A stretch of DNA of 64,000 nucleotides from an uncultured Collinsella sp. (GTDB lineage: Bacteria; Actinomycetota; Coriobacteriia; Coriobacteriales; Coriobacteriaceae), in contig UQZH01000003.1 of NCBI GenBank assembly GCA_900545445.1, positions 9,638-73,637 of the forward strand. The letters are read 5' to 3'. The position numbers and the translations under genes were made by a program. The notes beneath the pieces were generated by a model. That model saw nothing but the letters and a program-made list of their open reading frames with translations, searched no databases and was not told the DNA's origin. This document shows, piece after piece, positions 5,122-31,028 of the stretch; the stretch's first letter is position 1, and every line of letters begins with the position of its first letter.

Positions 5122-5787
5122 TCAGATCTTATATTTCGTGCGGATGTAGCCGACGTATTCTTTGACGAGCTCGCGTTCCATGTCGTCGGCGTAGCGGAAC
5201 TGCAGGCCGCAGACGTTGCGATACAGGCTGCCCTTGGGCGCGCGGCGCACCCAGCACACAATGCCCAGCTGCTCGGGCAGCTCGTGGCGCTCGCCCTGCA
5301 GACGGATCGTGGGCATTTGCACGGCCAGGGCCTCGCCCACGTCGGGGTAATCGTTGAGGTAAATAGCCAGACCGCCGGCCGAGACGTCGATGGTCATGGC
5401 GTCCTCGGGCTCGGGGGTCGGCGCGTTGTCGCGCTGGTAGTTCAGGCGCATGGCGACCTTAAAACGCTCGTCGCGGCGCTTAACGAAGGTGCGCTGCTCG
5501 GCGACTTTGCGCATTTTCCAGTAGGTGCGGATACCCTTTTTCTCGACTGCCTCGGGATAGCCGGCGAGCACGAACGTCTCCTCGCCCACTTTGTATTGCA
5601 GCAGGAGCTTTTGGTTTTCGTCCATGATGAGCGGCTTGCCGGCGAGCATGGGAGCGCTCATAAGAAAGTACGCCTCGTCCAGGTTCTCTTTGAACGTGGA
5701 GAGCATGTTGAAGTCGGTTTTTTGCCCCATGGGCACGTCGAATGCCACCTGAAGCTTAGTCCCCGGCGTTATCTGTTGCTCTGCCAT
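5122..5787 (-). CDS. YcgR/MotI-like c-di-GMP receptor (PilZN + PilZ domains)
   Basis: RxxxR motif (KRRDERFK) followed ~30 aa later by DVSAGGLAI (D.S.GG), the PilZ signature. The N-terminal half is YcgR-N-like. AGGGGAG RBS before MAEQQ. Confidence 0.75.
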   Translation of the reverse strand: MAEQQITPGTKLQVAFDVPMGQKTDFNMLSTFKENLDEAYFLMSAPMLAGKPLIMDENQKLLLQYKVGEETFVLAGYPEAVEKKGIRTYWKMRKVAEQRTFVKRRDERFKVAMRLNYQRDNAPTPEPEDAMTIDVSAGGLAIYLNDYPDVGEALAVQMPTIRLQGERHELPEQLGIVCWVRRAPKGSLYRNVCGLQFRYADDMERELVKEYVGYIRTKYKI

Positions 5788-5915
5788 GTATTCTCCCCTA
5801 GTCGCGGGCGCCGATATCATCGTCGTGCGCGATGCACATTGGGCTATTGTAACTGCTTTGCCGCAGGTTTCGATGTGCGGTGCGCGAAATGGCGGGATGT
5901 GAGGCGCAGGGGCCG

Positions 5916-7397
5916 CTAGTGCAGCTGCTTTGCGCGCTCCGACAGTCGATATTTACGGTTGCGGCTTGTCGCCGACGCCGTAGGTTCAAGCTCGCCCTGC
6001 GCGATGAGCGTATTGACGCGCGTCCTAACCTGGGAGACGGTGAGTCCCGTGCATTCTGCCAGTTCGCGCGTTCCCAACTCGTCATAGCGCTTGAGGGCCG
6101 CCATGATCAGGTCCCCGCCATGATCGACCTGCTCAACCTTCGCTCGGTAAAGGACAACCTTAAACCGGTCGAAACCCGGGCAAAACAACGGCTCGGCCAG
6201 ACCTTGCGCACGCATGGCATCGAGCATCATTGGAATGCCCGACCCGTTGCCTTCGGCAGAAGAGCCCGCGCCGTCGGGCAATGGGACAAGCGACATGAGC
6301 TTCACAAGCGTCGCATTGCGACATCGGGAGCTGCCGTCAAACAGGTTCTCGCGAGTCTTTCCTCCGTATAGGCCGCCGGGGTTCGTCACTTCGATACGGT
6401 CATCAAAGACGTCAACAGCGATCGACTGCCCACAGAACCGGTCTCCGTATTCTCGGTGGATTACGGCGTTGGCAATTGCCTCGCGCAGGACCTCCTCGGG
6501 AATCTCCAGCGAGTCGACACGCGAGACGCCTTTGATCATCGAGGTTCGTCGCAAATTCTTGGCGACCGCCGCGACGGCATCCGAGATCATTTCACCCAAC
6601 GTCCCCTCGCAGATCGTACGGTCCATGAACCTCAACGACCCCGCCGCGCCCTTCTGCGTTCCGGCATAGACCGCCACATCGATAAAGAGCTTGGGGTAGA
6701 ACTGCTGAGGATAGGCGCCCGCAACCAGGAGTCCGGCCTTAGTCACGTTGCCTTGGGAGTCGAGGAAATTCAGACGCTCCATCTTTGTCTTCTTGTCCGT
6801 CGCACCGTGCATCGCTCGAGGCGTCAACGAATAAGCACGCTCTATCGTGCGGTCGACCAGCGACTCGTCGAGATCGCCCACGCTCGCGCAGGACACCGCA
6901 TCGCGATCGCTAGGGCTCGTCCGTTCGTATGACGACAGCGCCAAAACCTCGGTCGACGAAAGCGGCACGTCTTTGTCATCGATGCGCTTGTAGCTACCGC
7001 CCTGGGCGCCCCGCTCTATGACATAACAAGGCTTGCTCGACGGGTCGAGCTCCTCGATCGTGATGACGAGAACAACGGTACCCCGAAGCTCCACGCGCTC
7101 AATGGTGTATTTGGGCGGATTGGCCAGCTTTCCGCGACCGCCGGCATCACCCATGCCCGCTACGAATTGGTTGAGCACCTTCTCGGTCTCAAAGTTCTCA
7201 ACCGGGACAAAGCCCGCGCGCTCGCTCACGCCGAGCACGATAATTCCGCCGGCAGTATTCGCGAATGCGCTAACCGTTTCCCATACGTCGCGAGAAAGCG
7301 TCGTGGCGCTCTCCTTGACCTCGACGTTAAGATCGTCCGAGCCCATGCGCCTTAAAGACTCGAGCAGACCGGTCAGCTCGTTTTCGTTCATCTGCAT
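5916..7397 (-). CDS. AlbA_2 (Schlafen-like) + HATPase_c_4 + C-terminal wHTH putative ATP-binding transcriptional regulator
   Basis: N-terminal divergent-AAA/AlbA_2 block (AFANTAGGIIVLGV), central GHKL-like block (NAVIHREYG...EVTNPGGL), C-terminal HTH (LAECTGLTVSQVRTRVNTL). GAAAGGA RBS. Confidence 0.75.
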   Translation of the reverse strand: MQMNENELTGLLESLRRMGSDDLNVEVKESATTLSRDVWETVSAFANTAGGIIVLGVSERAGFVPVENFETEKVLNQFVAGMGDAGGRGKLANPPKYTIERVELRGTVVLVITIEELDPSSKPCYVIERGAQGGSYKRIDDKDVPLSSTEVLALSSYERTSPSDRDAVSCASVGDLDESLVDRTIERAYSLTPRAMHGATDKKTKMERLNFLDSQGNVTKAGLLVAGAYPQQFYPKLFIDVAVYAGTQKGAAGSLRFMDRTICEGTLGEMISDAVAAVAKNLRRTSMIKGVSRVDSLEIPEEVLREAIANAVIHREYGDRFCGQSIAVDVFDDRIEVTNPGGLYGGKTRENLFDGSSRCRNATLVKLMSLVPLPDGAGSSAEGNGSGIPMMLDAMRAQGLAEPLFCPGFDRFKVVLYRAKVEQVDHGGDLIMAALKRYDELGTRELAECTGLTVSQVRTRVNTLIAQGELEPTASATSRNRKYRLSERAKQLH

Positions 7398-9632: not shown

Positions 9633-9730
9633 ATCTAATATCCCTTCGTTTAATAGAGTGAAATTCGTTTCAATTGACAACTTGTCATTTCACTACGTAT
9701 TAATACTTAATGACCTAAAAAAATACCTTT

Positions 9731-10633
9731 CTAGGAAATGGAAGCTTGGCCGTCTTTCATCTCGGCGAGTTTATGCTCGAATCCAAAGCCGCCGGGTTTA
9801 AGGCAATTCTTAGCTGAATAGTCAGCAGCGAATTCCATTGCATCCCGAATGATCTCCGCATCGAGCGGTTGCTTTTTACTCCAGCCATGCGAGAGACAGC
9901 TCACAACAAACGCAGTGATATACGAATCTCCCGCGCCCATGGTGTCAAGCGCATCTACGGGTCTTATATTTCCCTGGTACCATCGGGAACCGTCAAAGAA
10001 CACAGGCCCTGCAGATCCCCGTGTAGCAATCGTGTAGCGACAACCATGCTCTATGGCCCTCTTCAATAGAACTTGAATCTGTTGATCGCTCTCGCCGGAA
10101 CAGGAAAACAGACCAAGGGTTGTAGCAGGGCAAACAAGATCGAAATATGCGTCGGTTCGATACTTATCTTTAACGGAAAAGTCGTAAACCACCACAGCGG
10201 GAAGATCTTGAACTAGGTGCACATCATCCTGCAGCTTTGCATTGACGCTGGTAAAAACCGCATCGAATCCCTGAAGAAACTTGACATCAGAATCGTTGAT
10301 ATGGGTTTTGTGCGCCCAGCAAGCCCCCGTATCGTAACCAACTTCGACACGTTCACCGTTGTAAACATTTACATCGCAAGTCTTGGTTGTTGCTTTTTCA
10401 GGCATGCATGATTGCGAAAGGTCAACGTTCAGCGAAGAAAGGGCATCGGTGATTATTCGCCCTCCCAGGTCGTTGCCGATCTCCCCAATATACGCAGCCT
10501 GTGCGCCAAGCATGCTTGCATGGGCAGCGACGTTTACGGCATTGCCACCAGGATACATAACGCCTTTGTTGAGATAGCGATCAATAACGTTGTCACCAAT
10601 TGCTGCGATTTTCACCTCAACGCCTCCCATCAC
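9731..10633 (-). CDS. PfkB-family carbohydrate kinase (fructoselysine-6-kinase/ribokinase-like)
   Basis: GG...NVA N-terminal motif and DTMGAGDSY C-terminal motif typical of the PfkB/ribokinase family. Exact start (GTG 10633 or ATG 10630) uncertain. Confidence 0.8.
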   Translation of the reverse strand: MMGGVEVKIAAIGDNVIDRYLNKGVMYPGGNAVNVAAHASMLGAQAAYIGEIGNDLGGRIITDALSSLNVDLSQSCMPEKATTKTCDVNVYNGERVEVGYDTGACWAHKTHINDSDVKFLQGFDAVFTSVNAKLQDDVHLVQDLPAVVVYDFSVKDKYRTDAYFDLVCPATTLGLFSCSGESDQQIQVLLKRAIEHGCRYTIATRGSAGPVFFDGSRWYQGNIRPVDALDTMGAGDSYITAFVVSCLSHGWSKKQPLDAEIIRDAMEFAADYSAKNCLKPGGFGFEHKLAEMKDGQASIS

Positions 10634-10645
10634 GTACGGTCTTTA

Positions 10646-11644
10646 TTAGTACTCGACCTTGCGGTAATAACGGCGGATGTCGAGCGAATGGTCACGAATT
10701 TCCTCGAAATTCTTGCTCACACGCGAGAGAATGGCATTGAGCACCACCGGAGAAAGCATCCAGCGGAATTCGTCACTGATACCCGGCAACTCATAATCAT
10801 GTGTATCGAATACGGTGAAATCATCCGCATATTGCTTACAGAAGCGTGCAACGCGCTCATCAAGAGGCCTAGTCTGCGCCTCCGTCATTGCGAGCGCGAC
10901 GCAAACGCCCGGCTCAACAAGTTCGATAGTGCCATGGAAGAACTCAGGCGATGTAACGGATTTGGTGCGCAGCCATTGGGACTCCTCGAGCACACACATG
11001 GCAAACGAATACGTGGGGCCCCACAGATTGCCAGAACCAATCCAAATCTGATACGGATCGTCCTTGTGCTTCAGAGCATATGCGCGAGCCATCTCGTCAG
11101 CGTTCTTGCCGACGGAAACGAGAGCAGCGGGGAGATTCACAAGCTCATCAGCGAAGCGATCGTAGTCATCGAAAAAGCCCCTGTTCTTGAGAATCTTTCC
11201 AATCAGAAGGTACAGCACGAGCTCCATAGGACGGCCCTGCTTATAAATCACTCCATAATCGGAAAGTTCACCAAGCGGTGAACCGTCCACGCCAAGCGTA
11301 GAGACAATGGTGCAGCCTGCGTCTTTTGCCGCCTTTGCCGCCGCGACCGTCTCTTTGGTGTCGCCCGACTTGGACGCCATGAACGCCAAGGTCCCCTTAC
11401 CGATGCGCCGATTGCCAACCGTGAGGAAATCTGCCGAAACTTGGGACTGGACGGGAATATCGGACATAACAGAAACCATATAGTCAAACGGCTGCATCAT
11501 CGCAAGCGAGCCACCTGACGAGGTGAAGAAAATCGAATCGAAACCCTTTTCGCAAATTTCGTCAGCAATGCGTTCAATTTCGGCACGTTGATTGTAGATA
11601 TAAGCACCGTTATCGAGAATTGCCTGTTCATCAAATGAAACCAT
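10646..11644 (-). CDS. Double-SIS domain FrlB-like deglycase
   Basis: SIS motifs FFTSSGGS and IWIGSGNLWG; C-terminal RRYYRKVEY shared with the other SIS paralogs. Confidence 0.8.
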   Translation of the reverse strand: MVSFDEQAILDNGAYIYNQRAEIERIADEICEKGFDSIFFTSSGGSLAMMQPFDYMVSVMSDIPVQSQVSADFLTVGNRRIGKGTLAFMASKSGDTKETVAAAKAAKDAGCTIVSTLGVDGSPLGELSDYGVIYKQGRPMELVLYLLIGKILKNRGFFDDYDRFADELVNLPAALVSVGKNADEMARAYALKHKDDPYQIWIGSGNLWGPTYSFAMCVLEESQWLRTKSVTSPEFFHGTIELVEPGVCVALAMTEAQTRPLDERVARFCKQYADDFTVFDTHDYELPGISDEFRWMLSPVVLNAILSRVSKNFEEIRDHSLDIRRYYRKVEY

Positions 11645-11692
11645 GAGATATACCTTTCTAATTCAATTGGGCCAGACGGCGAAATCAACCAT

Positions 11693-12523
11693 TTAGATTG
11701 CAAACACTCCGAAGAAGGAGCCGACGATACCAACCGCCATGAGAATAACGAGAATCCAAGCAATCTTGACCTTGTGCTGGACGAGTTCGTAAACTCCAAG
11801 TGTCACAAGCAGCGGCAGCAGGCTCGGCATGATACCGTCGATGATGCTTTGGATAGTCTGCGCACTGTCGCCGGTACCGAGAGAACCAGCCACGCTGACC
11901 GATACAAGGTTGGGCACCATAGCGCCGATAACCATAAGACCGAGAATTGCAGCCCCCATAGTAAGCTTTGGCATAAGACCAGATTTCTCGATCTTGCTCA
12001 AGAAACTGGTTCCGAATCCATAGCCCCATTTAAGGCAGAACCAACGAATCAGATAATGCGGAACATTGAATACGACAAGGAAGAGAAGCGGGCCGAGAAT
12101 GTTACCCTGCATAGCAAGCGACACACCCAAGCCAGTGGCGATGACACGCAACGTTCCCCAGAACAGAGAGTCACCGATGCCGGCCAGCGGGCTCATAAGA
12201 GCGGCCTTTACGCTGTTGATGGAGGATTCGTCAAAATCCTCTTCGTTAGCGTTTGCCTCTTCCATCGCTGCCGAAATGCCCAGAATTAATGTTGAGACAT
12301 AAGGAGTGGTGTTGAAGAACTCCATGTGACGCTTAGCAGCAGCAGCCTGGTCATCCTTATTCTTATACACGCGACGAATGATGGGAAGCATGGAGAAGCA
12401 GTATCCCATGTGCTGCTGGCGCTCGTAGTTCCAGGAGTACTCCATCGTAAGCGAACGGAAAAATACCGATTTTAGATCACGCTTTGTAATCTTGTTGGAA
12501 CTGGTGTCATTAGAAGTCGTCAT
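11693..12523 (-). CDS. PTS mannose/fructose/sorbose family IID component
   Basis: IID hallmark WNYERQQHMGY and a membrane C-terminus. Start ATG overlaps the last codons of IIC (GATGACGAC), with a GGAAGGGAG RBS. Confidence 0.85.
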   Translation of the reverse strand: MTTSNDTSSNKITKRDLKSVFFRSLTMEYSWNYERQQHMGYCFSMLPIIRRVYKNKDDQAAAAKRHMEFFNTTPYVSTLILGISAAMEEANANEEDFDESSINSVKAALMSPLAGIGDSLFWGTLRVIATGLGVSLAMQGNILGPLLFLVVFNVPHYLIRWFCLKWGYGFGTSFLSKIEKSGLMPKLTMGAAILGLMVIGAMVPNLVSVSVAGSLGTGDSAQTIQSIIDGIMPSLLPLLVTLGVYELVQHKVKIAWILVILMAVGIVGSFFGVFAI

Positions 12524-13295
12524 CGTCGAAGCTCCCTTCCGAACTAAGCTGTGGCGTCTGAGCAATGAAGTTTGGCTGGACCACCACGAGGATTACTGCG
12601 AGGCAAAGCCCAATGATGGCAATACCAAGGATTGGAATGCTCATGTAGGCACAGAGCGCAAACCCGAGCACGAAGAAAATAGCAGTCTGCTTGTTGACAA
12701 TCATTGAAGCGAGCAGTGCAATGCCGAGCGCAGGGATGAATCCACCCGCAATAACCAGGCCGTTACTTACAAACTCGGGAATTGCGTTAAGCACCGCGTT
12801 CATAACCGGCGTTCCGAGATAGAAAGCAAGGGAGCACACGAAAAAGCGAGGAAGCGATTTGACGATGAATCCACCAAGCAGATGCATCCGCTCCATACCT
12901 TTGAGGTCGCCCTTTGCCACACAGTCGTCCGCTTTATGGACGAAAAACGGCATCACGATCAGCGTAAGCGCGTTATCAATGATGAGATAAAGCGACGCAA
13001 TCGGGAAAGCGAGCGTCAGCGCAACTTCAGCGCCTTGACCCGTCGAAATTGCAAAGGCAGTGCCCAAAATACCACCGGTGATAACGTCAGGCGGAACGGC
13101 CGCCCCGATGGTAACCGATCCAATGAACACCATTTCAAGCGTGGCGCCGACAATAATGCCCGTCTGCAAATCACCCATCACAAGACCGATGAGGACGCCC
13201 GTGACAATCGGGCGAGAAGCAAGGCAAGTGCCAAGTGCCCACTCAAATGTCACGCACATTGCGACGAGGCCGATAAGGATCGCTTGAGTCAACAT
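12510..13295 (-). CDS. PTS mannose-family IIC component
   Basis: 261-aa polytopic membrane protein with the IIC core GDLQTGIIVGATLEMVFIG...AAVPPDV. Confidence 0.85.
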   Translation of the reverse strand: MLTQAILIGLVAMCVTFEWALGTCLASRPIVTGVLIGLVMGDLQTGIIVGATLEMVFIGSVTIGAAVPPDVITGGILGTAFAISTGQGAEVALTLAFPIASLYLIIDNALTLIVMPFFVHKADDCVAKGDLKGMERMHLLGGFIVKSLPRFFVCSLAFYLGTPVMNAVLNAIPEFVSNGLVIAGGFIPALGIALLASMIVNKQTAIFFVLGFALCAYMSIPILGIAIIGLCLAVILVVVQPNFIAQTPQLSSEGSFDDDDF

Positions 13296-13322
13296 GAGGG
13301 ATCCCCTTTCTATTGTATGTGC

Positions 13323-13784
13323 TTAAATCAAAATCTTCTCGTCTCTAGGTACCTGCCTGATCTCCACCTCGATTCCGGCATCACTGAGCTCATGTAGAAG
13401 CTCCACGTCGCGATCGGTAGCGAAAACCGTTGAAGATAGGCGTACATCTGCACCCTCACGCGGCTTCGTTCCTCCAATGTTGATATGCTCGATTTCGCTG
13501 TAGCCCTTTGCCAGGCGGTAAGCATCTTCGATGCTTTCAACGACAATGAACAAACGGTACTTATCGGTCACACCGCTCCTAAGAGCCTCGATAGAATCAT
13601 CGACCGATTTGATAACCAATTTGACGCCTGCCGGACGTGCCAGCTTAAGCGTCGTCTTGCGCACGTCATCTTTCACAACCGCATCGCAGGCAATCAAAAT
13701 GCAATTGGTGTCAAGCTCTTGCGTCCAAGTCATGGCAACCTGACCATGAAGCAAGCGATGGTCAACTCTCAACAGCTTAATCAT
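13323..13784 (-). CDS. PTS mannose-family IIB component
   Basis: MIKLLRVDHRLLHGQVA (phospho-His region of IIB-Man). GAAAGGAAC RBS; the ORF track gives a longer N-terminus. Confidence 0.8.
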   Translation of the reverse strand: MIKLLRVDHRLLHGQVAMTWTQELDTNCILIACDAVVKDDVRKTTLKLARPAGVKLVIKSVDDSIEALRSGVTDKYRLFIVVESIEDAYRLAKGYSEIEHINIGGTKPREGADVRLSSTVFATDRDVELLHELSDAGIEVEIRQVPRDEKILI

Positions 13785-13797
13785 CTTTGTTCCTTTC

Positions 13798-14214
13798 TCA
13801 AAAATCCTCGTCTTCTTCTGCCGAATTTGGCAGCGAACATAGGCATGTGCCCTTTTGGCGGACACTTGAAACCAATGCAGCGAGCTCGGCGTCATCAAGT
13901 GTGCTCAATTTCGAAAACACTTCGAGCACTAGTGGTAGCGACATGCCGGCAATGAGTCTTAGAGAATCGTCACCCAACCTTTCCATAAAAGCGTTATTCA
14001 CTGACCCACCATAGACATCAGTGATGACAATCCACTGGTCTGCTGGGTCGCGAGAACGGTCCCAAAAATCTATCAACTCGTTTACATCCATCGTGTCCTC
14101 ATCGACATATGCGCATAGCACCTTAACGCGAGGATCTTCACCGCAAAATAGCTGGAGCGTTTCACGCATCGCTCTAGCAAGTGGCCCATGGCTGGCCAAG
14201 AGCAACTTCCTCAT
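13798..14214 (-). CDS. PTS mannose-family IIA component
   Basis: MRKLLLASHGPLA... IIA-Man fold signature. First gene of the operon. Confidence 0.8.
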   Translation of the reverse strand: MRKLLLASHGPLARAMRETLQLFCGEDPRVKVLCAYVDEDTMDVNELIDFWDRSRDPADQWIVITDVYGGSVNNAFMERLGDDSLRLIAGMSLPLVLEVFSKLSTLDDAELAALVSSVRQKGTCLCSLPNSAEEDEDF

Positions 14215-14351
14215 TTATCTCCCAATCTCAGTCAATCATCTGTTAATAGAACGTTATATTTTGTATTGTTATCTACAGTATCCTCGAAACTTTCGCTTTG
14301 TCAAGACAGATCAATCAAGCTTCCTAAGCGGTAATAATTCGCCCGTAAACG

Positions 14352-14386
14352 GCAAAAAAACGCCCCTTTGTCGGGGCGTTTTCAAT
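14352..14386. terminator. Rho-independent terminator AAACGCCCC-TTTGT-CGGGGCGTTTT
   Basis: A-run/hairpin/T-run between the GntR gene (ends 14429) and the PTS IIA start (14214). Confidence 0.7.
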
Positions 14387-14428
14387 CTCTTGTTATTCGG
14401 TTAAGAAAGATCCGGGGTTTGGCTTTCG

Positions 14429-15133
14429 CTAGAGATAAAACTTTAAGCGCTCAGTGCAGTACACCTGCCGCGAAATAAACAATGGCACTCCCTGCGCGCT
14501 GCAACGCTTATCTACAAATAATAAAAGGGCAGATCCCGGCTTTACATTCAAATGTTCTGCCTCGTAAGCACTTGCAAAGCACACCTGCAACGTTCGCTCG
14601 TTATTGCCAAGTTCGATATGGCGTCTTCCCAGCACCTCAAGTAGAGAACCCGATAAATCTTCATGTTCCAAAAAGGCCAGAGAAGGAGTGTAGCTATTGG
14701 TTTCCAACATCGTTGGCACGCCATCGACTAAGCGCAAACGTCTAGTCTGAAGAATATTCTCGTCCTCCTGGACCTGAAGAAAACGCACGTCGCGCAGCGT
14801 AGGATAAATCCAAGCTACTTCGAGCACTACGGTAGAAGGCTTTTTATTTTCTTGAATGCAGGAATGGGTGAAGCTTTCCTGGTCATCGGCTGCATAGGCA
14901 TTGCGTGTCGTGGTAACAAAAGTCCCTTTCCCTCGCGTGCGCTCAACGATATCGGCGTCCTCTAGTTCCTTGATTGCCGATCGAACGGTAATACGACTAA
15001 CGCCATATTCCTCCATAAGCTCCGTCTCAGTAGGAAGCTTATCCCCTTCGCTATATACGCCACTTTCTATTCGACTCACAAGATCGTGAACGATCTGCTT
15101 ATACAATGGAACAGCGCTCTCCACTTTAACCAT
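14429..15133 (-). CDS. GntR/HutC-family transcriptional regulator (HTH + UTRA)
   Basis: N-terminal PLYKQI...LPTETELMEEYGVSRITVRSAIKEL GntR HTH; C-terminal UTRA-like region. Confidence 0.8.
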   Translation of the reverse strand: MVKVESAVPLYKQIVHDLVSRIESGVYSEGDKLPTETELMEEYGVSRITVRSAIKELEDADIVERTRGKGTFVTTTRNAYAADDQESFTHSCIQENKKPSTVVLEVAWIYPTLRDVRFLQVQEDENILQTRRLRLVDGVPTMLETNSYTPSLAFLEHEDLSGSLLEVLGRRHIELGNNERTLQVCFASAYEAEHLNVKPGSALLLFVDKRCSAQGVPLFISRQVYCTERLKFYL

Positions 15134-15141
15134 TATTCAAC

Positions 15142-15930
15142 CTATTGCTTTCTGCACTCAACGGCTTCAAGTCCCTGCCAGTTGATGCCGAGTTGATTAG
15201 CCTTAATCGAAAAGAAGTATTTGAAATAGTCACCCAACATCACCTGCTTAGTAAAGTGCACTGGCTTACCAGTGCTCATATAAACGGTCTCACTCAATAT
15301 AAACATCGCAGCTTCTCCTGCGATGTTAAGGATGCGCTTCTCCTCATCCGTAGCAAGCCCTGCTTCAAGCACAATAGACGGGAAACAATTATCCTCTAGT
15401 CGCAGCCCCGTCTCTCTCTCAATCGTTTCATAAAGTGATGCGTTCTCCATATCGACACCCAGTAAAAACCCGAAGTTCTTTACTGGAAGATAAATATGTT
15501 CAATCATTGCATTTATGTGATTAATTGACCTCACGCGTTTGAGGTAAACCGCAGATTCATTCTCTTCCATTCGCAAATGACGACGGACGGCAACGGGCGG
15601 CTCGACCTCCTGAAGAGCGAGAACACGAGACGAGGTTTCGATATTATTTTCATGGCAAAAATAAGTGAAACCCTTAAACGTGCTCAAGCTCGAGACGATT
15701 TTAGGCTGCCGGATAAATGTGCCTTTGCCATGACGCGTATCAAGCACGTCGTCATCCACAAGAGTTTGAATTGCCTTCCGTATCGTCGCACGGCTAACCT
15801 CGTATTCTTCGCAAAAACCATTTTCGCTAGGCAACACGCCACTTTCGGAAAACTCGCCCATCTCAATACGGCGGCGCAAATCATCAGCTACTTGTACATA
15901 TAGCGGCACAGCACTAGTCGGGTTAATCAT
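15142..15930 (-). CDS. GntR/HutC-family transcriptional regulator
   Basis: PLYVQVADDL...LPSENGFCEEYEVSRATIRKAIQTL. Tandem with 14429..15133. Confidence 0.8.
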   Translation of the reverse strand: MINPTSAVPLYVQVADDLRRRIEMGEFSESGVLPSENGFCEEYEVSRATIRKAIQTLVDDDVLDTRHGKGTFIRQPKIVSSLSTFKGFTYFCHENNIETSSRVLALQEVEPPVAVRRHLRMEENESAVYLKRVRSINHINAMIEHIYLPVKNFGFLLGVDMENASLYETIERETGLRLEDNCFPSIVLEAGLATDEEKRILNIAGEAAMFILSETVYMSTGKPVHFTKQVMLGDYFKYFFSIKANQLGINWQGLEAVECRKQ

Positions 15931-16302
15931 AACGTTCTCCGTATAACATTCTATGAAACTTCTATACGTTATAAGATAACCTATTACGTATTATTTTGAA
16001 AGAAATAGACGGTTCAATCTTATTTTTGAACCGTCTACAATATCAAACACTCCATATGAAGGTGTCGAATGCCACTTGTGGCGCAAACAAGAGGGGCATT
16101 TGGCAAAAATGCCCCATTTCGCCTTGAAGTCACTACCGTGAAATGCCAACGAGCCGCATGGTCGAGTCCAAGCAAATACGACCTCAAGCGGCCAGCTACG
16201 GCATGGCTCCCTAGAACGAGACTGCGACATTTGTTTGCATTGTTTTACGAACGCAACATAACGAATTATTTCCGAGCAAAATAACGACCGCTGAAAGCTG
16301 CT

Positions 16303-17337
16303 TTAGTAGTTCATCTGGTGGTAGTAGCGACGCGTGGTGAGCGGGTGGTTGCGGACGTGCTCGAGATGGCAGCTCAGGCGCTCGGTGATGGTGTAGGTGA
16401 CCATCGGGGAGACGATCTTGCGGAACTCGGGGTCGCTGAACGGCAGCTCGACCTCGGCGGTGTCGAACTTGTTCACGCGGACATGGACGCCCTTCTCGTC
16501 GGCGAGCATGTGGGTGAAGTTGTCCACGCGGTCCATGAGCTTGCGGGTGTCATCCTCGCCGTAGAGCATGATGAGGCTCGTGCCCTCCTCGCACAGCTCG
16601 ATGGTGCCGTGGAAGAACTCGGCGGCGTGGATGGACTTGGTCTTGATCCACTGCATCTCCTCGAGGATGCACATGGCGTAGTCGTAGGCCTCGCCCCAGA
16701 GCATGCCGGAGCCGATCACCATGTGGTAGTCGGTGTCCTTGAAGTCCTCGGCCATGGCGGCGCAGCGCTCGTCCTGGGCGTCCTTGGCCTTGATGAGGTA
16801 CGGGGCGATGTTGCCGAACTCCTCCATGAAGGTGTCGTACTTGGGGAAGGCGCCGGCGTTCTTGAGGAAGCGGGCGACCAGCGTGATCTGGTAGGTGTAG
16901 ATGGCCTCGCACAGGACGTCGTCCTCGGCGAAGCTGAAGAACTTGTAGTCGGCGTACTCGGTGGCCGGGGTGTTGTCGTTGGAGACGTACATCAGCGTGC
17001 GGGCGCCCTGCTCCTGGCAGAACTTGGCGGCCTCGATGATCTCGGGGGTGGTGCCGGTACGGGTGGAGAAGACGCAGACCGAGTCCTTGTTGAAGGCCTT
17101 GGGCGGGCATGCGAGGAACTCGGCGGCGATCTCGCAGTGGACGTCGACGTCGGCCGTGGTGGTCTCGACCCAGTACTTCATCGGGAGCGTGTGGGCCCAG
17201 GTGCCGCCGCAGCCGATGAAGAAGATGTTGGAATAGCCCTGCTCGCAGACCTTGTCCACGGCAGCCTCAATCTGAGGACGGAGAGCGAGGGCATCGCTCA
17301 CAACCTTCTCGTAACGAGGCTCATCGAAATTGAACAT
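16303..17337 (-). CDS. Double-SIS domain FrlB/AgaS-like protein, copy 2 (identical to 8598..9632)
   Basis: Identical protein. AGGAGTAAGGG RBS. Followed 3' by a hairpin/T-run at ~16011-16050. Confidence 0.8.
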   Translation of the reverse strand: MFNFDEPRYEKVVSDALALRPQIEAAVDKVCEQGYSNIFFIGCGGTWAHTLPMKYWVETTTADVDVHCEIAAEFLACPPKAFNKDSVCVFSTRTGTTPEIIEAAKFCQEQGARTLMYVSNDNTPATEYADYKFFSFAEDDVLCEAIYTYQITLVARFLKNAGAFPKYDTFMEEFGNIAPYLIKAKDAQDERCAAMAEDFKDTDYHMVIGSGMLWGEAYDYAMCILEEMQWIKTKSIHAAEFFHGTIELCEEGTSLIMLYGEDDTRKLMDRVDNFTHMLADEKGVHVRVNKFDTAEVELPFSDPEFRKIVSPMVTYTITERLSCHLEHVRNHPLTTRRYYHQMNY

Positions 17338-18188
17338 CCCTTACTCCTAACTCACTTAGATGAACCCTTCATTCATCCCATAACGTTATAATACTTTATA
17401 TAACTAACTATGCAAGTATTATTTTGATTCTGCTCTTTCATCAAGCCCCTTAAAACAACAATCGGCATTGTTGGACACAGCGTGCAAGTTCATTGAACGA
17501 TTCAATATGCATCGTCCCTAGTTAAATGACGTCTTATGCAAATACCTTTAATCCGCTTGGGGCCGACGAATCTTTTGACTGTCCGCAGAAGCTTTCCCGG
17601 AATTCCCCATGGATAGACGCACCGGCAATCGCTTTGTTATCTGGCTTATTGCGCATTGCCGGACCGTCTGGGAGAAAGTGCAATCTACCGCGTGGTCAAC
17701 TAGCGTTTCATCGGAATCGACCGCATCCGCGCCAAATACTAAATCGCAATCGTTGTAACTCGCCCGATCATATGACGGCAATTTCTCGCCTTAAAAATGA
17801 GCACGAAATAAGGGGGCAGCTGTTTGCAATTTGCTTTATTCGTAAGTGTTTTTACTGAAAAAACAATCACCAACCAAACAGCACTATTAACAGCACTATT
17901 AATTGTTTGGCTCTTTGCTGTACAGCCATCTTTCGTATACGCCTCTCGTCTATCTCTCATCTCACGGTTGGAGACGAAAGGTGTGCGGGAGTGGATAATT
18001 GGACGGCATTTGGGCCTGCGACGGATTATTTCGTCCGAAAATCCACGCTCATTTGGCGGGACACGCGGGGCCTATGCCCAATCCGCTGGCATCGTCTTCA
18101 GTTCGCCGCAGAGCCGCGGCCCCATATGGGTATACTCTCGGAGATTCGACTCGATTCGCCCCCGCTGGGGCGTCAAAGGAGACTGTAT

Positions 18189-21599: not shown

Positions 21600-21863
21600 A
21601 TGACTCGGACCGATAAACTCATCGCCCAGCTGCTTAGCTGCCCTTCGACGTATCGGTATACCGATTTTTTAAAAGTCATGGCTTCATATGGCTTTGAAAT
21701 GGACAACAAAGGCAAGACATCCGGATCGCGCGTTCGCCTCTACAGGCCATCGGATGGCAGGATGTTCGTAATGCACGCGCCACATCCATCTGACGAATTG
21801 ACAGCGGGGACCATTCGAAACATCGTTCGATTTCTGCAAGATGTCGGAGGTAGTCATGAGTAA
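21600..21863 (+). CDS. hicA: Type II toxin-antitoxin system HicA-family toxin
   Basis: YcfA/HicA pattern ...KGKTSGSRVRLYRPSDGRMFVMHAPHPSDELTAGTIRNIVRFL. Followed by an overlapping hicB. Confidence 0.75.
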   Translation: MTRTDKLIAQLLSCPSTYRYTDFLKVMASYGFEMDNKGKTSGSRVRLYRPSDGRMFVMHAPHPSDELTAGTIRNIVRFLQDVGGSHE

Positions 21864-22185
21864 CGTTTTGGCATACAAGGGTTATTTCGCCCCAGTCGAG
21901 TTCGATGCCGAACAGCATGTGCTCACAGGTATGGTCACCGGCATTAGGGACGCAATCGTATTTGAAGGCTCCACGGTTGAAGAAGTGGAGCAATGCTTCC
22001 ACGACGCCGTCGACGATTACCTTGAGTTTTGCGCCGAGAAGGGCAAGGAACCCGAGCGAGCTTTTAAGGGCTCGTTCAACGTAAGAACGGGCTCTGAGCT
22101 CCACAAGCAAGCAGCGCTGGCAGCGGTAAAGAAGGGTGAGTCACTCAATAAGTTTGTGACTGAAGCAATCGCTGCGGCGTTATAG
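21856..22185 (+). CDS. hicB: Type II TA system HicB-family antitoxin
   Basis: Classic HicB blocks YKGYFAPVEFD...GSTVEEVEQCFHDAVDDYLEFCAEKGKEPE...SLNKFVTEAI. The ATG overlaps the hicA stop (ATGAGTAA). Confidence 0.8.
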   Translation: MSNVLAYKGYFAPVEFDAEQHVLTGMVTGIRDAIVFEGSTVEEVEQCFHDAVDDYLEFCAEKGKEPERAFKGSFNVRTGSELHKQAALAAVKKGESLNKFVTEAIAAAL

Positions 22186-22316: not shown

Positions 22317-22331
22317 CTAGAGGAGGCTGGG

Positions 22332-22928
22332 ATGGACAAGGCTGAGTTGCGACGGGCGATGATTGCTCGGCGCGATGCTCTTGATTTAGATGTGCGGGCG
22401 GCGAAGTCTGCCGTTATCTGTGCGCGGCTGGTTGAGCTGTTGGATCGCTCGGATGCCGCGGCGCCGCACACCGTTGCCGTCTATGCCGCGATGGGTTCCG
22501 AAGTCGATCCTGCCGCGTTTGCCGCAGCGGCCGCCAAACGCGGCTGGCGCGTGGCCTATCCGTGCATGTTCTCGGCAATTGATGCCGCAGCTTGTGGCCA
22601 GCGCATGTGCATGCGGGCAGTTGCCGCCGACGATGCGTCCGCGGCACCGTTTATCGCCCACCCCACGCGGGTCTTTGCGGCCGTGGACATCGACAACGAC
22701 CGCTTCCCTATCGTGCCTGCCGAAGCTCTCGACATGGTCGTCGTGCCGCTCGTAGCCTTCGACCGCGCCGGCGCGCGCCTGGGCTACGGCGGCGGCTGCT
22801 ATGATCGCTACCTGCCCACGCTCTCGCCCGCATGTCAAATCATCGGCATCGCCTTTGACGAGCAGCGTGTCGACCACGTTCCCACCGACGCCCACGACCT
22901 GCCGCTACTCCACATCATCAGCGCCTGA
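22332..22928 (+). CDS. 5-formyltetrahydrofolate cyclo-ligase
   Basis: C-terminal GYGGGCYDRYL motif and ~200-aa size typical of the 5-FCL/MTHFS family. GAGGAGG RBS. Confidence 0.8.
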   Translation: MDKAELRRAMIARRDALDLDVRAAKSAVICARLVELLDRSDAAAPHTVAVYAAMGSEVDPAAFAAAAAKRGWRVAYPCMFSAIDAAACGQRMCMRAVAADDASAAPFIAHPTRVFAAVDIDNDRFPIVPAEALDMVVVPLVAFDRAGARLGYGGGCYDRYLPTLSPACQIIGIAFDEQRVDHVPTDAHDLPLLHIISA

Positions 22929-22952
22929 TCGCCGCCGTATCGCACCCGCAAG

Positions 22953-23072
22953 ATGAGCGTGGAAAATCTCCCACTTTGAGCCCCTTACGAGCCAAAAGTG
23001 GGAGATTATCCACGCTCAACCATTGCGCGTCCAGATTTCCACGCTCGTCCGTCCGGATTTCCACGCTCGTGC
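22953..23072. repeat. Direct repeat DR-A (~120 bp): 24-bp-arm palindrome GAGCGTGGAWAATCTCCC..TTTG/CAAAAGTGGGAGATTATCCACGCTC followed by 2x GTCCRRAWWTCCACGCTCGT
   Basis: Seen directly. ~85% identical to DR-B at 24353-24472, same orientation. The TCCACGCTC box occurs four times (1 inverted, 3 direct). Confidence 0.7.
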
Positions 23073-23094
23073 GGCTCAACGTCCTGCAACCGCC

Positions 23095-24057
23095 TCAACA
23101 CGCACGCGGCACGCCGGCGACCCTGAGCTTGCGATCGAGCTTTGTCGGATCCCTTAGATCATCCCAGCACAAGCGCACGATCTTGCAGTTATCAAGCAGC
23201 GAAAGCCTCGACTCGCGCTGGCGCTCATCAAACTGCGCCTTCGCGAGCTTGCCCTCCTCCGCCGCCTTCTCGCTTTTAACGAATCCGTCGAACTCCCCGA
23301 TAATCAGCCGGTCGCCCACACGCCACAAGTAGTCAACGCGATACGGCCGCCCCGGCTCAACCGGGTCGAACAGCTCAACTTGCAGCTCCGGCGTCTGCCA
23401 GCCGCGCTCGATCATCAGGGCGCGCGCCTTGGACTCGCCGCCGCTTTCTGACAGGCCATCGGCATACCGCGCAACACTTCGCGCCGTCACAACACCGCGA
23501 CGATTTAAGCCAAGCTTGTTGATTGCCTCAACGAGATGCTCCTTCGACAACAGCTGCTCATGAAGCGCCGAGTCCGCAATGATCAGTCCCTCGACAAACG
23601 ACGCATCGACCAGGCAATCCGTAATCGTTTGATCGATATCGGTCACGGCAATATCCATCTGGATTGCCCGTGTTTGACGAGCATAACGATGGCGAATCAC
23701 CTGAGAGCCGGGCGTCGTCGATTGCGCCGGCGCCGCGGCGATATGGATGTGCGTCAAATTGGCATGCGAAACCGAAAGACCATAGATAACAGCCGCCGTA
23801 TAGGAGCAAAACGTCCAGTCGGGATGCTTTTGCGCAAGGGCCCGCACCCGATGCAGATAACGCTGCCGAAACTTGAGCTCGGACCAATAATCCGGACGCG
23901 CATACAGCCCCGGCATGACCGCCTCTAGACTTCCCGCCGCCACCCGCCGCTCAATCTGCTTTGCCTCCGCCGTCGTGCGTGCGTACACGCAGCTCATCTG
24001 CTGTTCGCATGCTTTAATGTGACTTGTAAGCCTTTGATTCGCCGTCATGTTTCCCAT
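23095..24057 (-). CDS. AbiEi_4-like wHTH + DUF559 (Vsr-like endonuclease fold) domain protein
   Basis: N-terminal ...CVYARTTAEAKQIERRVAAGSLEAVMPGLYARPDYW pattern of AbiEi-type HTH. C-terminal VDYLWRV...IIGEFDGFVKSE...VRLCWDDL matches the DUF559/Vsr-like fold. GGGAGG RBS at MGNMTANQ. Confidence 0.65.
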   Translation of the reverse strand: MGNMTANQRLTSHIKACEQQMSCVYARTTAEAKQIERRVAAGSLEAVMPGLYARPDYWSELKFRQRYLHRVRALAQKHPDWTFCSYTAAVIYGLSVSHANLTHIHIAAAPAQSTTPGSQVIRHRYARQTRAIQMDIAVTDIDQTITDCLVDASFVEGLIIADSALHEQLLSKEHLVEAINKLGLNRRGVVTARSVARYADGLSESGGESKARALMIERGWQTPELQVELFDPVEPGRPYRVDYLWRVGDRLIIGEFDGFVKSEKAAEEGKLAKAQFDERQRESRLSLLDNCKIVRLCWDDLRDPTKLDRKLRVAGVPRAC

Positions 24058-24352
24058 GTCGCCTCCCAACTCTTGGAACGGCGCAAACGTACCAGACGGT
24101 TTCATGCGAAGTCTGACCAAATGCTGTCCAGGCGCTGACCAAATGCTTGACGGCTTTGGACGTTTTAGACTGATGACTTATATCTGCAGGTAGGGTGGTT
24201 GTCGAGAGGTCCCCGTCTCCATAATTTGGCGCCTTGGTCCATCGGATTATCAGAAAGAAAAACCCGTCGAGATTCAAGACCACGCCAAATGCGACTTTGC
24301 CTCTGCACGCACCGTCTCTTAGCCGAGCCATCGGCATCTACATGCCTAAAAA

Positions 24353-24472
24353 ATGAGCGTGGATAATCTCCCGTTTTGAGCCTAGTTTCAAGCCAAAAGT
24401 GGGAGATTATCCACGCTCGATTTGTAAACGTCCGAAAATCCACGCTCGTGTGTCCGAAAATCCACGCTCGTC
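24353..24472. repeat. Direct repeat DR-B (partner of DR-A)
   Basis: Same palindrome + triple-box architecture; lies between the DUF559 gene start and the metA stop. Confidence 0.7.
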
Positions 24473-24512
24473 ATGCCGTGAGCACAGCCACAGTCGCAGC
24501 CACGGCCGCAGC

Positions 24513-25439
24513 CTAGTGCTCCTCGCCGGCGCGGGCCAGGTCGTAGGGCGTGGTCTGGTAGACGTAGTAGTTGAGCCAGTTGGTGTAGAGCAACTGAGCC
24601 TGGCTGCGCCAGACGTTGCGCGGCTCGACGGTGGGGTCGTCACCTGGGAAGTAATGCGCCGGCACCTGAGGGTTGAGCCCGCGCTTCACGTCGCGCTCGT
24701 ACTCCAGACGCAGCGTGTCGGTATCGTACTCGGGATGGCCAAAGACAAAGAAGCGGCGGCTGTCGGTCGACTTGACGATGTACAGGCCCACCTCGTCGGA
24801 CACGGCCACGACCTCAAGCTGAGGCTCGGCCTCCACGTCCTCGCGGCGCACATCGGTGTTGCGCGAATGCACGGCATAGAAACGGTCGTCGAAGCCGCGA
24901 ACCAGCGGGCTTTGCGGCTTCACCAGATGATGCTCGAACACGCCGCTCGCCTTTGTCGACAGGTCGTACTTCTGAATACCGTAGTGGTGATACAGGCCCG
25001 CCTGCGCGCCCCAACAAATGTGCAGCGTAGAGTGCACGTGCGTGGTGGACCAATCCATGATCTGGCAGAGCTCGGGCCAGTAGTCAACCTCCTCGAACGG
25101 CATCTGCTCCACCGGCGCGCCCGTGATGATCAGGCCGTCGTAGTGGATGTCGCGGATGTCGTCGAACGTGCGGTAGAACGTCTCCAGGTGGCCAGCGCTC
25201 ACGTGCGTGGCCTCGTGCGTCTTGGTGCGCAGCAGGTCCACCTCCACCTGTAGCGGCGTGTTGGAGAGCTTGCGCATGATCTGCGTCTCGGTGGCGATCT
25301 TGGTGGGCATGAGGTTGAGGATGAGCACGCGCAGCGGGCGGATGTCCTGGTGCAGCGCGCGGTACTCGGTCATGACAAAGATGTTCTCGCTCTCGAGCTG
25401 CGCGGCGGCAGGGAGGGCGTCGGGAATGCGAATGGGCAT
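24513..25439 (-). CDS. metA: Homoserine O-acyltransferase (MetA family)
   Basis: Full-length similarity to MetA/HTS (ILNLMP, ITGAPVE, CWGAQA, FGHPEYD blocks). Confidence 0.85.
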
Positions 25440-30854: not shown

Positions 30855-30949
30855 GGTTTCCTAACGTCAGAATCATCTGCCGCCGATTATACGCCGCCAC
30901 GCGGACCGGTGCCGCACGGCTATCAGCCACGCTCATTCTGCGGGTAGTC

Positions 30950-30994
30950 ATTGGGGACGTTCTTGAATGACCAGTCGTTTAAGAACGTCCCCAA
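30950..30994. other. Hairpin TTGGGGACGTTCTTGAA-N11-TTAAGAACGTCCCCAA in the recQ upstream region
   Basis: 16-bp near-perfect inverted repeat, seen directly. Confidence 0.5.
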
Positions 30995-31028
30995 CGACTA
31001 GTCTCTTGACAAGCGCGGAAATCCCGCA

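Follow-up and report, generated by a model that had tools for sequence, protein, structure and literature searches.

A winged-helix, nuclease-like gene and the palindromic repeats that bracket it in Collinsella: a possible REP-associated partnership

Why should a single gene, placed between two conserved housekeeping genes, have a copy of the same palindromic repeat on each side? The question is raised by a 64,000-nucleotide (nt) stretch of DNA from an uncultured Collinsella sp. (GenBank assembly GCA_900545445.1, contig UQZH01000003.1, forward-strand positions 9,638 to 73,637; hereafter the window), in which a gene for a 320-amino-acid (aa) protein lies between the 5-formyltetrahydrofolate cyclo-ligase (5-FCL) gene and metA, flanked by two direct repeats of ~120 nt, DR-A and DR-B. 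An initial annotation had taken this arrangement for a candidate mobile cassette and had mentioned, as an alternative, that the protein might itself bind the boxes in the repeats. Comparison with related loci indicates that the repeats belong with the gene. To the reading that we favour we give an even chance: the repeats would be the protein's own binding sites, in a partnership resembling that between repetitive extragenic palindromic (REP) sequences or REPINs and their RAYTs, here with a non-HUH nuclease.

The repeat-gene-repeat module

A repeat search recovered the same-orientation ~120-bp repeats around one gene that had been described between 5-FCL and metA, and profile matches to both boundary genes delimit the repeat-gene-repeat segment as a discrete unit between two housekeeping genes. 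Its parts are as follows.

22329..22928, plus strand: left boundary gene, 5-FCL (TIGR02727, 7.6e-35)
22950..23072, minus strand: downstream array DR-A, beginning 22 nt past the stop codon, oriented as DR-B
23095..24057, minus strand: gene for the 320-aa protein, starting at MGNMTANQ behind a GGGAGG ribosome-binding site
24058..24349, minus strand: spacer or leader of ~290 nt between DR-B and the start codon
24350..24472, minus strand: upstream array DR-B, arms 24355-24378 and 24394-24418, ~300 nt 5' of the gene
24513..25439, minus strand: right boundary gene metA, homoserine O-acetyltransferase type (NF047918, 2.6e-146)

DR-A and DR-B align in two blocks, one of 86 nt (22985-23070 versus 24386-24471, 78% identical) and one of 33 nt (22950-22982 versus 24350-24382, 88% identical), which differ by one base in offset (1401 versus 1400 spacing); the overall identity is therefore ~81%, close to the annotated ~85%, which was slightly too high. 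Counting bore out the described anatomy, that is, per repeat a palindrome with 24-nt arms plus two direct units, giving one inverted and three direct boxes. The DR-A arms of 24 nt (within about 22954-22978 and 22993-23018) are 96% complementary, and the DR-B palindrome aligns over 31-nt arms that are 84% complementary, two of the mismatches being G.T pairs. Two 20-nt units, GTCCRRAWWTCCACGCTCGT, come after the palindrome in both repeats, at 22-nt spacing (23029-23048 and 23051-23070 in DR-A; 24430-24449 and 24452-24471 in DR-B); the arm reads GTGGATAATCTCCCAC and the unit GTCCGAAAATCCACGCTCGT. The box TCCACGCTC occurs nine times in the window versus 0.8 times expected, a count attained by 0 of 100 shuffles, and eight of the nine occurrences sit in DR-A and DR-B, as one inverted and three direct boxes each. 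The 23-mer arm has only four sites in the 64 kb, all in DR-A and DR-B, with 0 expected. Folded as a single strand, either strand of each repeat departs from its shuffles by z = -6.4 to -7.3.

Read on the gene strand, DR-B has the order unit, unit, hairpin and lies just 3' of metA, and DR-A lies where 5-FCL and the nuclease-like gene converge, between their 3' ends. A promoter-like TTGAAA-17-GATTAT stands inside DR-B (minus strand, 24391->24363; a consensus match only), and ATTTTTT follows the DR-B hairpin on the minus strand. A scan for intrinsic terminators found no canonical one at the hairpins, which are flanked by weak T-runs. An Rfam-type scan of the window gave no match to the repeats at gathering score (a tRNA-Asp elsewhere was the only hit), and a permissive RNA-family scan returned only sub-threshold miRNA-hairpin noise. 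Strains differ in how many direct units their downstream array has, with up to six boxes in L046 (L046:1842-2058; L001:6988-7155; L-numbers label the compared loci from other assemblies); units of 22 to 29 nt are therefore gained and lost. The leader contains an exact tandem 13-mer, CTGACCAAATGCT, at 24113-24125 and 24135-24147, 22 nt apart. A GCN-periodic, microsatellite-like tract (GCAGCCACGGCCGCAGC...; window 24473-24512, L001 5547-5587, L221 4273-4445) separates the stop codon of metA from the upstream array; it differs in length among strains and is strongly expanded in L221. The likeness of TTATCCACG to the E. coli DnaA box, which we take to be 8/9 positions, gave rise to the idea of a replication origin; this was rejected, there being no GC-skew switch, the genes converging on the site and the element being multi-locus.

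The real coding sequence is shorter than the mechanical open reading frame (ORF), nearly all homologues being ~320 aa long, and no further credible ORF was found between DR-A and DR-B. Searches of the window protein against Pfam and NCBIfam gave no match (in Pfam none even at E<=1), the gathering scores of PF04480 and PF03852 were not reached, and PDB sequence searches returned nothing. When 26 homologues were compared with Pfam, AbiEi_4 appeared at 0.0055 in three and DUF559 at 0.0044 in one, and PADLOC AbiEi profiles match residues ~24-206, up to 3.5e-9. An AlphaFold model from the 26-sequence alignment (pLDDT 89.9, pTM 0.85) resembles DUF559, I-Bth0305I, Vsr and AbiEi folds and has the Vsr-type restriction-endonuclease-like fold. 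By predicted fold, residues ~1-200 would form an AbiEi-like winged-helix region and residues ~200-320 a Vsr/DUF559-like PD-(D/E)xK nuclease domain; the annotated label of an AbiEi-type helix-turn-helix (HTH) joined to DUF559 appears right by predicted fold, although curated Pfam thresholds are not reached. The motifs ESGGES, R240-x-D242, G254-E255-x-D257-G258-x-x-K261 and E278-R-x-R281 are invariant in the 26 homologues, and because of this the nuclease active site appears to be kept; D242, E255, D257, K261, E278 and R281 appear, by motif resemblance, to be candidate active-site residues. Relative to homologues in related genomes, the gene has a dN/dS of 0.13-0.26.

Clustered at 50% identity, the family numbers 1,492 clusters at E<=1e-30 and 6,045 at 1e-10. 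No AbiEii/DUF1814 toxin gene stands beside the gene, whose neighbours are metA and 5-FCL. Neither the window protein nor its 26 homologues have a Y1_Tnp Pfam match that would point to an HUH/Y1 transposase, the fold being winged helix plus PD-(D/E)xK. A phage or plasmid link was considered and rejected: the protein family was not found in IMG/VR viral contigs, and only three viral contigs contain the arm sequence.

Lineage-specific flanks, inheritance and dispersal

Protein lineages of 35-69% identity were compared, and arrays on both flanks are clear in nine of the 11 (separated at <=70% identity): the window group, L009, L221, L011, L014, L015, L214, L216 and L217. Homologues only 35-46% identical to the window protein stand in unrelated gene contexts and are still bracketed by repeats of their own. 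In L014 (dnaE / gene / znuABC), these are 87-nt palindromic repeats at 5864-5950 and 7044-7130; in L015, beside rpsF-ssb-rpsR-rplI-dnaB, hairpins at 5771-5833 and 7111-7185; and in L011, beside an MMPL gene, arrays of a 61-nt unit at 5407-5610 and 7104-7336. Both flanks carry 87-nt palindromes in L216, palindromes with 59-nt arms in L217 and arrays of CCGCCAG/CTGGCGG units in L214, and at metA/5-FCL itself L009 and L221 have different palindromes on both flanks (the GGGGGCCAAAAGTCCC and TGAGGGGGCCTTTTGCCCCT types). Flank occupancy taken from the gene tables is ~19/22; a hand count of other intergenic regions in the same loci gives ~4/~75 with an element. The downstream array typically starts 1-40 nt past the stop codon (up to ~160 nt in three lineages), and the upstream palindrome commonly lies ~300 nt before the start codon (range ~50-500 nt).

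The sequences of these flanks change with the protein. L014 and L015, 69% identical in protein, have GTAACG-N5-TGCGTA in common, and L009 and L221, 61% identical, have TGAGGGGGCC in common; L009 and L221 both match the window arm GAGCGTGGATAATCTCCC at only ~11/18 positions, even though these two and the window share the metA/5-FCL locus. On each flank of L007, whose protein is 83% identical to that of the window, the GAGCGTGGA box is replaced by GAGAGTGGA or GAGCGAGGA. These comparisons lend good support to two conclusions, namely that the repeat sequence is matched to the protein lineage, related proteins appearing to have related boxes, and that the repeats are not incidental and constitute, together with the gene, a conserved three-part module.

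The gene lies between metA and 5-FCL in relatives whose proteins are 93% (L001), 83% (L007), 58% (L009) and 55% (L221) identical to the window protein. In L009 its synonymous divergence (dS) of 1.42 compares with 1.26 for the adjacent 5-FCL gene, and both proteins are 58% identical to their window counterparts. Occupancy of the same locus at 55-58% identity, with a dS like that of 5-FCL, marks vertical inheritance, with gene and repeats diverging together. Of the 49 Collinsella metagenome loci that can be assessed on both sides, 47 have the element at each flank; the only other element sites within +/-10 kb of the cassette are polymorphic.

The hairpin is not confined to this locus. Dispersed copies were collected by exact match to an 18-mer of the arm among 185,579 species genomes (at least 120 stretches), and among the matches listed only Collinsella-type genomes appear: 143 hairpin sites in 120 stretches form 24 flank-pair classes, with ~30 of the 143 representing cassette flanks in ~16 loci and the rest lying in 22 further classes. 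On the same matches, the element occupies at least roughly a dozen loci in Collinsella, cassette included, and several loci can be filled in one genome (QSUU01: L028, L135; CADFMD01: L031, L136). Away from the cassette, hairpins stand at the 3' ends of genes, often bordering accessory genes of low GC content at third codon positions (GC3); a role as general promoter was rejected, since the orientation of the downstream gene is inconsistent. Non-orthologous copies are 0.91 identical in the arms, a value partly inflated because the copies were gathered by exact 18-mer, 0.81 in the inner arm outside the search pattern and 0.51 in the loops. Lineage-specific palindromes at extra sites are also present around more distant homologues (L009 7915-7987 and 11090-11162; L015 9687-9732; L011 12215-12309). 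The initial annotation had foreseen that the repeat might be merely one copy of an abundant REP-type element, decaying neutrally and unrelated to the gene; a dispersed REP-like family does exist, and neither neutral decay nor unrelatedness to the gene was found.

Two further traces of the element lie in the window.

17985..18052, no strand assigned: degenerate third repeat copy, an inverted pair GTCC..TCCAC(G)CTC upstream of an M16 peptidase gene
30925..30940, no strand assigned: box-like remnant GCCACGCTCATTCTG in an intergenic region where other strains hold the full ~130-nt hairpin element

The site orthologous to 17985-18052 is occupied in 4 of 27 loci, and boxes lie ~5 kb from 5-FCL in L026, L027, L033, L040 and L069. 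The site orthologous to 30925-30940 is filled in L018, L031, L048, L057, L078, L079, L099, L141, L152, L157, L179 and L190, as well as in L231 and L233. A second, unrelated palindrome family, GACTAGTCATTGGGGACGTTCTT...AAGAACGTCCCCAACGACTAGTC, is found at window positions 30945-31003, at L050:2596-2630 and at the orthologous site of L185 and L154; it adjoins the hairpin remnant in the window and the hairpin in L050, and at a single intergenic site this family and the hairpin element occur as alternative alleles.

We therefore propose, because the same ~130-nt element is scattered at other Collinsella intergenic sites, that the gene may be the vertically inherited, single-copy, trans-acting partner of a REP-like repeat family. 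Gene and repeats would act as one three-part module, with the repeats as cognate DNA sites of the encoded protein. Its AbiEi-like winged-helix region would read the TCCACGCTC-containing boxes, with symmetric binding to the arms of the palindrome and array-wise binding to the direct units spaced 22 nt apart, and this binding would bring the C-terminal Vsr/DUF559-like nuclease onto the elements; the upstream array probably doubles as an operator for AbiEi-style autorepression. That the boxes are bound by the protein's own HTH, the alternative offered by the initial annotation, is the best-supported reading of them, and we infer it from the co-variation of protein and flanking repeats across lineages. 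Cutting or nicking of the bound sites, and the spread or upkeep of the dispersed copies by the protein, would follow from the same scheme.

A broader extension is possible, and we hold it tentatively: the wHTH-Vsr/DUF559-like family, of at least 1,492 clusters, may be a second, non-HUH class of REP-associated enzyme, each lineage of which maintains and occasionally spreads its own palindrome family, the flanks being vestigial ends of an ancestral element. To our knowledge, REPIN-RAYT is the only well-understood bacterial partnership of repeat and enzyme, and the repeat families of Gram-positive, high-GC gut bacteria are poorly described. Full-text literature searches found no paper that ties DUF559 or AbiEi-like nucleases to REP-type repeats. 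If the proposal holds, it would supply a function for a large family of hypothetical AbiEi-like/DUF559-like proteins, and each lineage would represent a predicted protein-DNA recognition pair whose box sequences can be read from its flanks.

Counter-evidence and rival explanations

Several observations weigh against the reading that we favour. Copy number in Collinsella looks low, at least five per genome and at least about a dozen loci, versus hundreds for classical REPINs, and the 64-kb window holds only the two full flanking copies and remnants. The inflated arm conservation mentioned above belongs here as well. In the C. aerofaciens group, upstream copies of different genomes are 0.90 identical and downstream copies 0.88, versus 0.84 for the upstream and downstream copy of the same genome, and concerted evolution of the two flanks was not seen in this group (within-genome 0.84, between-genome 0.82). 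Because these copies cluster by locus and not by genome, they are taken to be old and constrained, without recent spread. The filled and unfilled alleles at 30925-30940 differ across a 5-nt CCACG microhomology, and the unfilled site looks like a microhomology deletion and not a naive target; no fresh insertion was found. L231 and L233, which lack the cassette at metA/5-FCL, retain an intact solo hairpin 7 kb away, and hairpin copies thus persist without a local gene. Two of the compared lineages, finally, are not clean fits: L223 has an upstream palindrome and its contig ends downstream, and L224 has a palindrome downstream only, with the gene in an apparent two-gene operon. The operon is suggested because the gene (L224:1718-3543, P0106) overlaps the end of a 247-aa upstream ORF without a Pfam hit; the downstream palindrome arms there are 61 nt long.

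Some of these points are what a purely regulatory role would predict, and this is the leading rival, although we regard it as unlikely. The protein would be an AbiEi-type autorepressor and both arrays its operators, which might loop the DNA to repress a nuclease gene that could be toxic; the dispersed hairpins would be operators or terminators of a small regulon, and the nuclease would act elsewhere, on foreign DNA or mismatches, with nothing mobilised. The AbiEi-like N-terminal half, the autoregulatory binding of AbiEi proteins to multiple inverted repeats (PMC7319586) and the promoter-like -35/-10 within DR-B agree with such a role, as do the AAAATG...CATTTT that flanks the hairpin consensus, the ATTTTTT after DR-B 3' of metA, the age and locus-specificity of the Collinsella copies, the conservation of the arm sequence at all loci and the persistence of solo copies where the cassette is deleted. 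However, an array right after the stop codon, as in most lineages, is unexpected for a simple operator. Whole 130-nt elements are present or absent among strains and two palindrome families alternate at one site, which is the behaviour of repeat elements. Moreover, the dispersed sites switch sequence family with the protein, which is hard to explain for a regulon of fixed sites, and the orientation of neighbouring genes to the hairpin is inconsistent.

The original idea of a mobile cassette has a smaller probability, and we consider it improbable. Here, repeat-gene-repeat would move as a unit (in trans, by its own nuclease or through excision between the repeats), and solo hairpins would be its footprints, like solo long terminal repeats. 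The synteny comparison that had been suggested for 5-FCL and metA did reveal empty sites. They were reached through a search with the 5-FCL protein, the best 120 matches of which are all at least 89% identical, and they occur in L225-L233, a set to which the complete genome GCA_041330285.1 belongs. Just 23 nt separate 5-FCL from metA there, with neither gene nor repeat between them; the 5-FCL proteins of the empty-site genomes are 89-90% identical to that of the window. However, neighbour-joining trees built for metA+ldh, the M16 peptidase gene and 5-FCL place the empty alleles inside groups of filled ones, and the deeper outgroups are all filled. Two groups of empty alleles have one common junction; the missing stretch corresponds to ~22949-24501, slightly beyond repeat-to-repeat, and the filled/empty junction retains no solo repeat and no target duplication. 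For these reasons the empty sites are taken for a derived deletion, and not for a virgin target or an inter-repeat excision. On the simplest reading of these alignments, the module would be ancestral at metA/5-FCL in Collinsella and its relatives, and the empties would be one derived, imprecise deletion allele spread by recombination.

Hence, of the cassette proposal, the discrete unit and the existence of empty alleles stood, whereas recent mobility did not, given the fixed locus, a dS matching that of 5-FCL and the occupancy of both flanks in 47/49 loci. Excision by recombination between the direct repeats fell with the absence of a solo repeat and a gap that exceeds the repeats. The ends are direct and without target-site duplication, in place of terminal inverted repeats with a duplication, and the location is fixed within the genus. 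No recombinase is called in the 5-6 kb flanks of L001, L007, L009 and L221, and no second gene copy was seen, though whole genomes were not searched for one. Excised circles, suggested by many contigs of ~1.45-1.48 kb with only this gene, were rejected: the L010 ends are exact 30-nt inverted termini, and because this length equals k-1 such stand-alone contigs are de Bruijn graph breaks at the palindromes. The hairpins account in this way for recurrent assembly breaks in Collinsella metagenomes.

What favours mobility beyond the empty alleles is that family members occupy different loci in different genera, that variable accessory genes of low GC3, DUF262-like and C5-methyltransferase genes among them, often adjoin solo copies, and that another gene is bracketed in the same fashion. 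Between pyrE and a phosphotransferase system (PTS) EIIA gene, a same-polarity hairpin pair encloses a low-GC, 394-aa Fic-family gene (HPFLDGNGRLGR) at L050:2639-4177 (Collinsella sp. 4_8_47FAA, NZ_KN214134 160001-168000) and in L081, L090, L097, L113 and L133. In other genomes the pyrE-EIIA interval has one hairpin together with an RpiR-like regulator and an 866-aa ORF, or with an XRE-like gene. In L038, L053 and L087, a hairpin ~680 nt from tuf borders a variable segment with differing low-GC3 genes, among them an HTH-containing protein of 428 aa in L038 and, in L053, a DUF262-like N-terminus; in L037 the hairpin adjoins a C5-methyltransferase-like gene.

Under the broader extension outlined above, these hairpins might also mark the limits of captured accessory or defence genes, Fic among them. 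A separate reading, in which the hairpins are attC-like sites that capture foreign genes without an integron, the wHTH-nuclease breaking the DNA and host recombination finishing the event, we consider more improbable still than a mobile cassette, even though the bracketed Fic cassette and the variable pyrE-EIIA and tuf-adjacent intervals with a hairpin at the border speak for it. A further hint comes from the stem. At stem positions 22-23 of 76 distinct, unit-oriented copies (L018-L137 and the window), G.T/T.G exceeds A.C/C.A by 42 vs 10 and 35 vs 14, which could mean that one specific strand is the one that folds (as RNA or single-stranded DNA), as in attC sites, but could simply be inherited from a master copy. 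Fic is, moreover, the only cargo seen bracketed on both sides; at tuf there is a single hairpin, where tRNA-type hot spots could explain the variability, and neither attC R'/R'' core motifs in the hairpins nor an integrase nearby were found.

That ordinary REP-type terminator palindromes happen to flank an unrelated gene is very improbable, for although the element is a dispersed intergenic palindrome, often at gene 3' ends, and a palindrome occupies 4 of ~9 local intergenic regions in L009, full copies lie in only 2 of many intergenic regions of the 64-kb window, nine of 11 independent lineages have lineage-specific sequences on both flanks, and 47/49 Collinsella loci are doubly flanked where other nearby sites are polymorphic.

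The surroundings of the module were also surveyed. Just upstream of 5-FCL, at 21600-22185, the window has a HicA/HicB toxin-antitoxin pair; the same interval contains an RHS/YD-repeat protein gene in L001 and HicB plus RHS in L007, and the segment from the M16 peptidase gene to 5-FCL is therefore variable. In a block of lower GC (9700-17400; 0.46-0.51 vs ~0.60), minus-strand genes encode a mannose-family PTS (EIIB/EIIC/EIID) together with SIS-domain proteins, a PfkB kinase and a pair of GntR/UTRA regulators. We take the block for a probable amino-sugar utilisation island; L231 and L233 also have it, whereas in L232 it is replaced.

Comparison with known systems

Integron attC cassettes resemble the present arrangement in that single accessory genes without an obvious promoter (this gene, and Fic in L050) lie between imperfect palindromes of similar length. 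They differ in that the gene tables of L001, L007, L009 and L221 list no integrase (the window being only partly annotated), R'/R'' core sites (RYYYAAC / GTTRRRY) are absent on reading the hairpin, and the elements are dispersed and not arrayed, with a main cassette that is ancestral and immobile on the timescale examined. Iteron plasmid Rep proteins are winged-helix initiators that bind direct iterons as well as an inverted-repeat operator at their own promoter. The likeness is that one winged-helix family would here read the same box inverted (in the palindrome) and direct (at 22-nt periodicity) beside its own gene; unlike iteron systems, the module is chromosomal, has arrays on both sides and a nuclease domain, and shows no replication evidence and no GC-skew feature.

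For the C-terminal half, a survey of PD-(D/E)xK proteins groups DUF559 only with Vsr and I-Bth0305I (clade 58, PMC3424549), and the conserved D...E-x-D-G-x-x-K motif is common to these nucleases (PDB 1cw0, 3hrl, 3r3p) and the present protein. I-Bth0305I shows that a Vsr-type fold can serve a selfish site-specific endonuclease. In contrast to them, the window protein has no Pfam DUF559 or Vsr match at threshold and is fused to an AbiEi-like DNA-binding half; its gene has no adjoining cytosine methyltransferase, as with Vsr, and does not lie within an intron or intein, as with I-Bth0305I. For the N-terminal half, the counterparts are the AbiEi antitoxins of type IV AbiE systems (S. agalactiae, PDB 6y8q; M. 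tuberculosis Rv2827c, PDB 1zel), which autoregulate by binding multiple inverted repeats (PMC7319586, PMC3985639), and multiple inverted repeats also stand upstream of the present gene. Here, however, there is no AbiEii (DUF1814) toxin gene, a nuclease fold replaces the C-terminal antitoxin domain, and the arrays flank the gene on either side and recur at other genomic sites.

A RAYT gene is present in single copy, passes down vertically and has its own REPs on its flanks (PMC2817692, PMC3116915). The Collinsella module departs from REPIN-RAYT systems in its enzyme, a winged helix plus Vsr/DUF559-like PD-(D/E)xK fold in place of an IS200/IS605-type HUH/Y1 transposase; in its flanks, which are direct and not inverted and have extra 22-nt-spaced direct units; in a copy number that is seemingly tens at most and not hundreds; and in that no recent duplication was found. 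The two are alike (PMC2817692, PMC3116915, PMC3337134) in having a vertically inherited gene at a fixed locus (single copy here in that none other was seen), flanked on both sides by a palindrome that is also scattered intergenically, often at the 3' ends of genes, and in a lineage-specific repeat that changes with the protein. If our reading is correct, the evolutionary logic of REPIN-RAYT has arisen here with a different nuclease fold.

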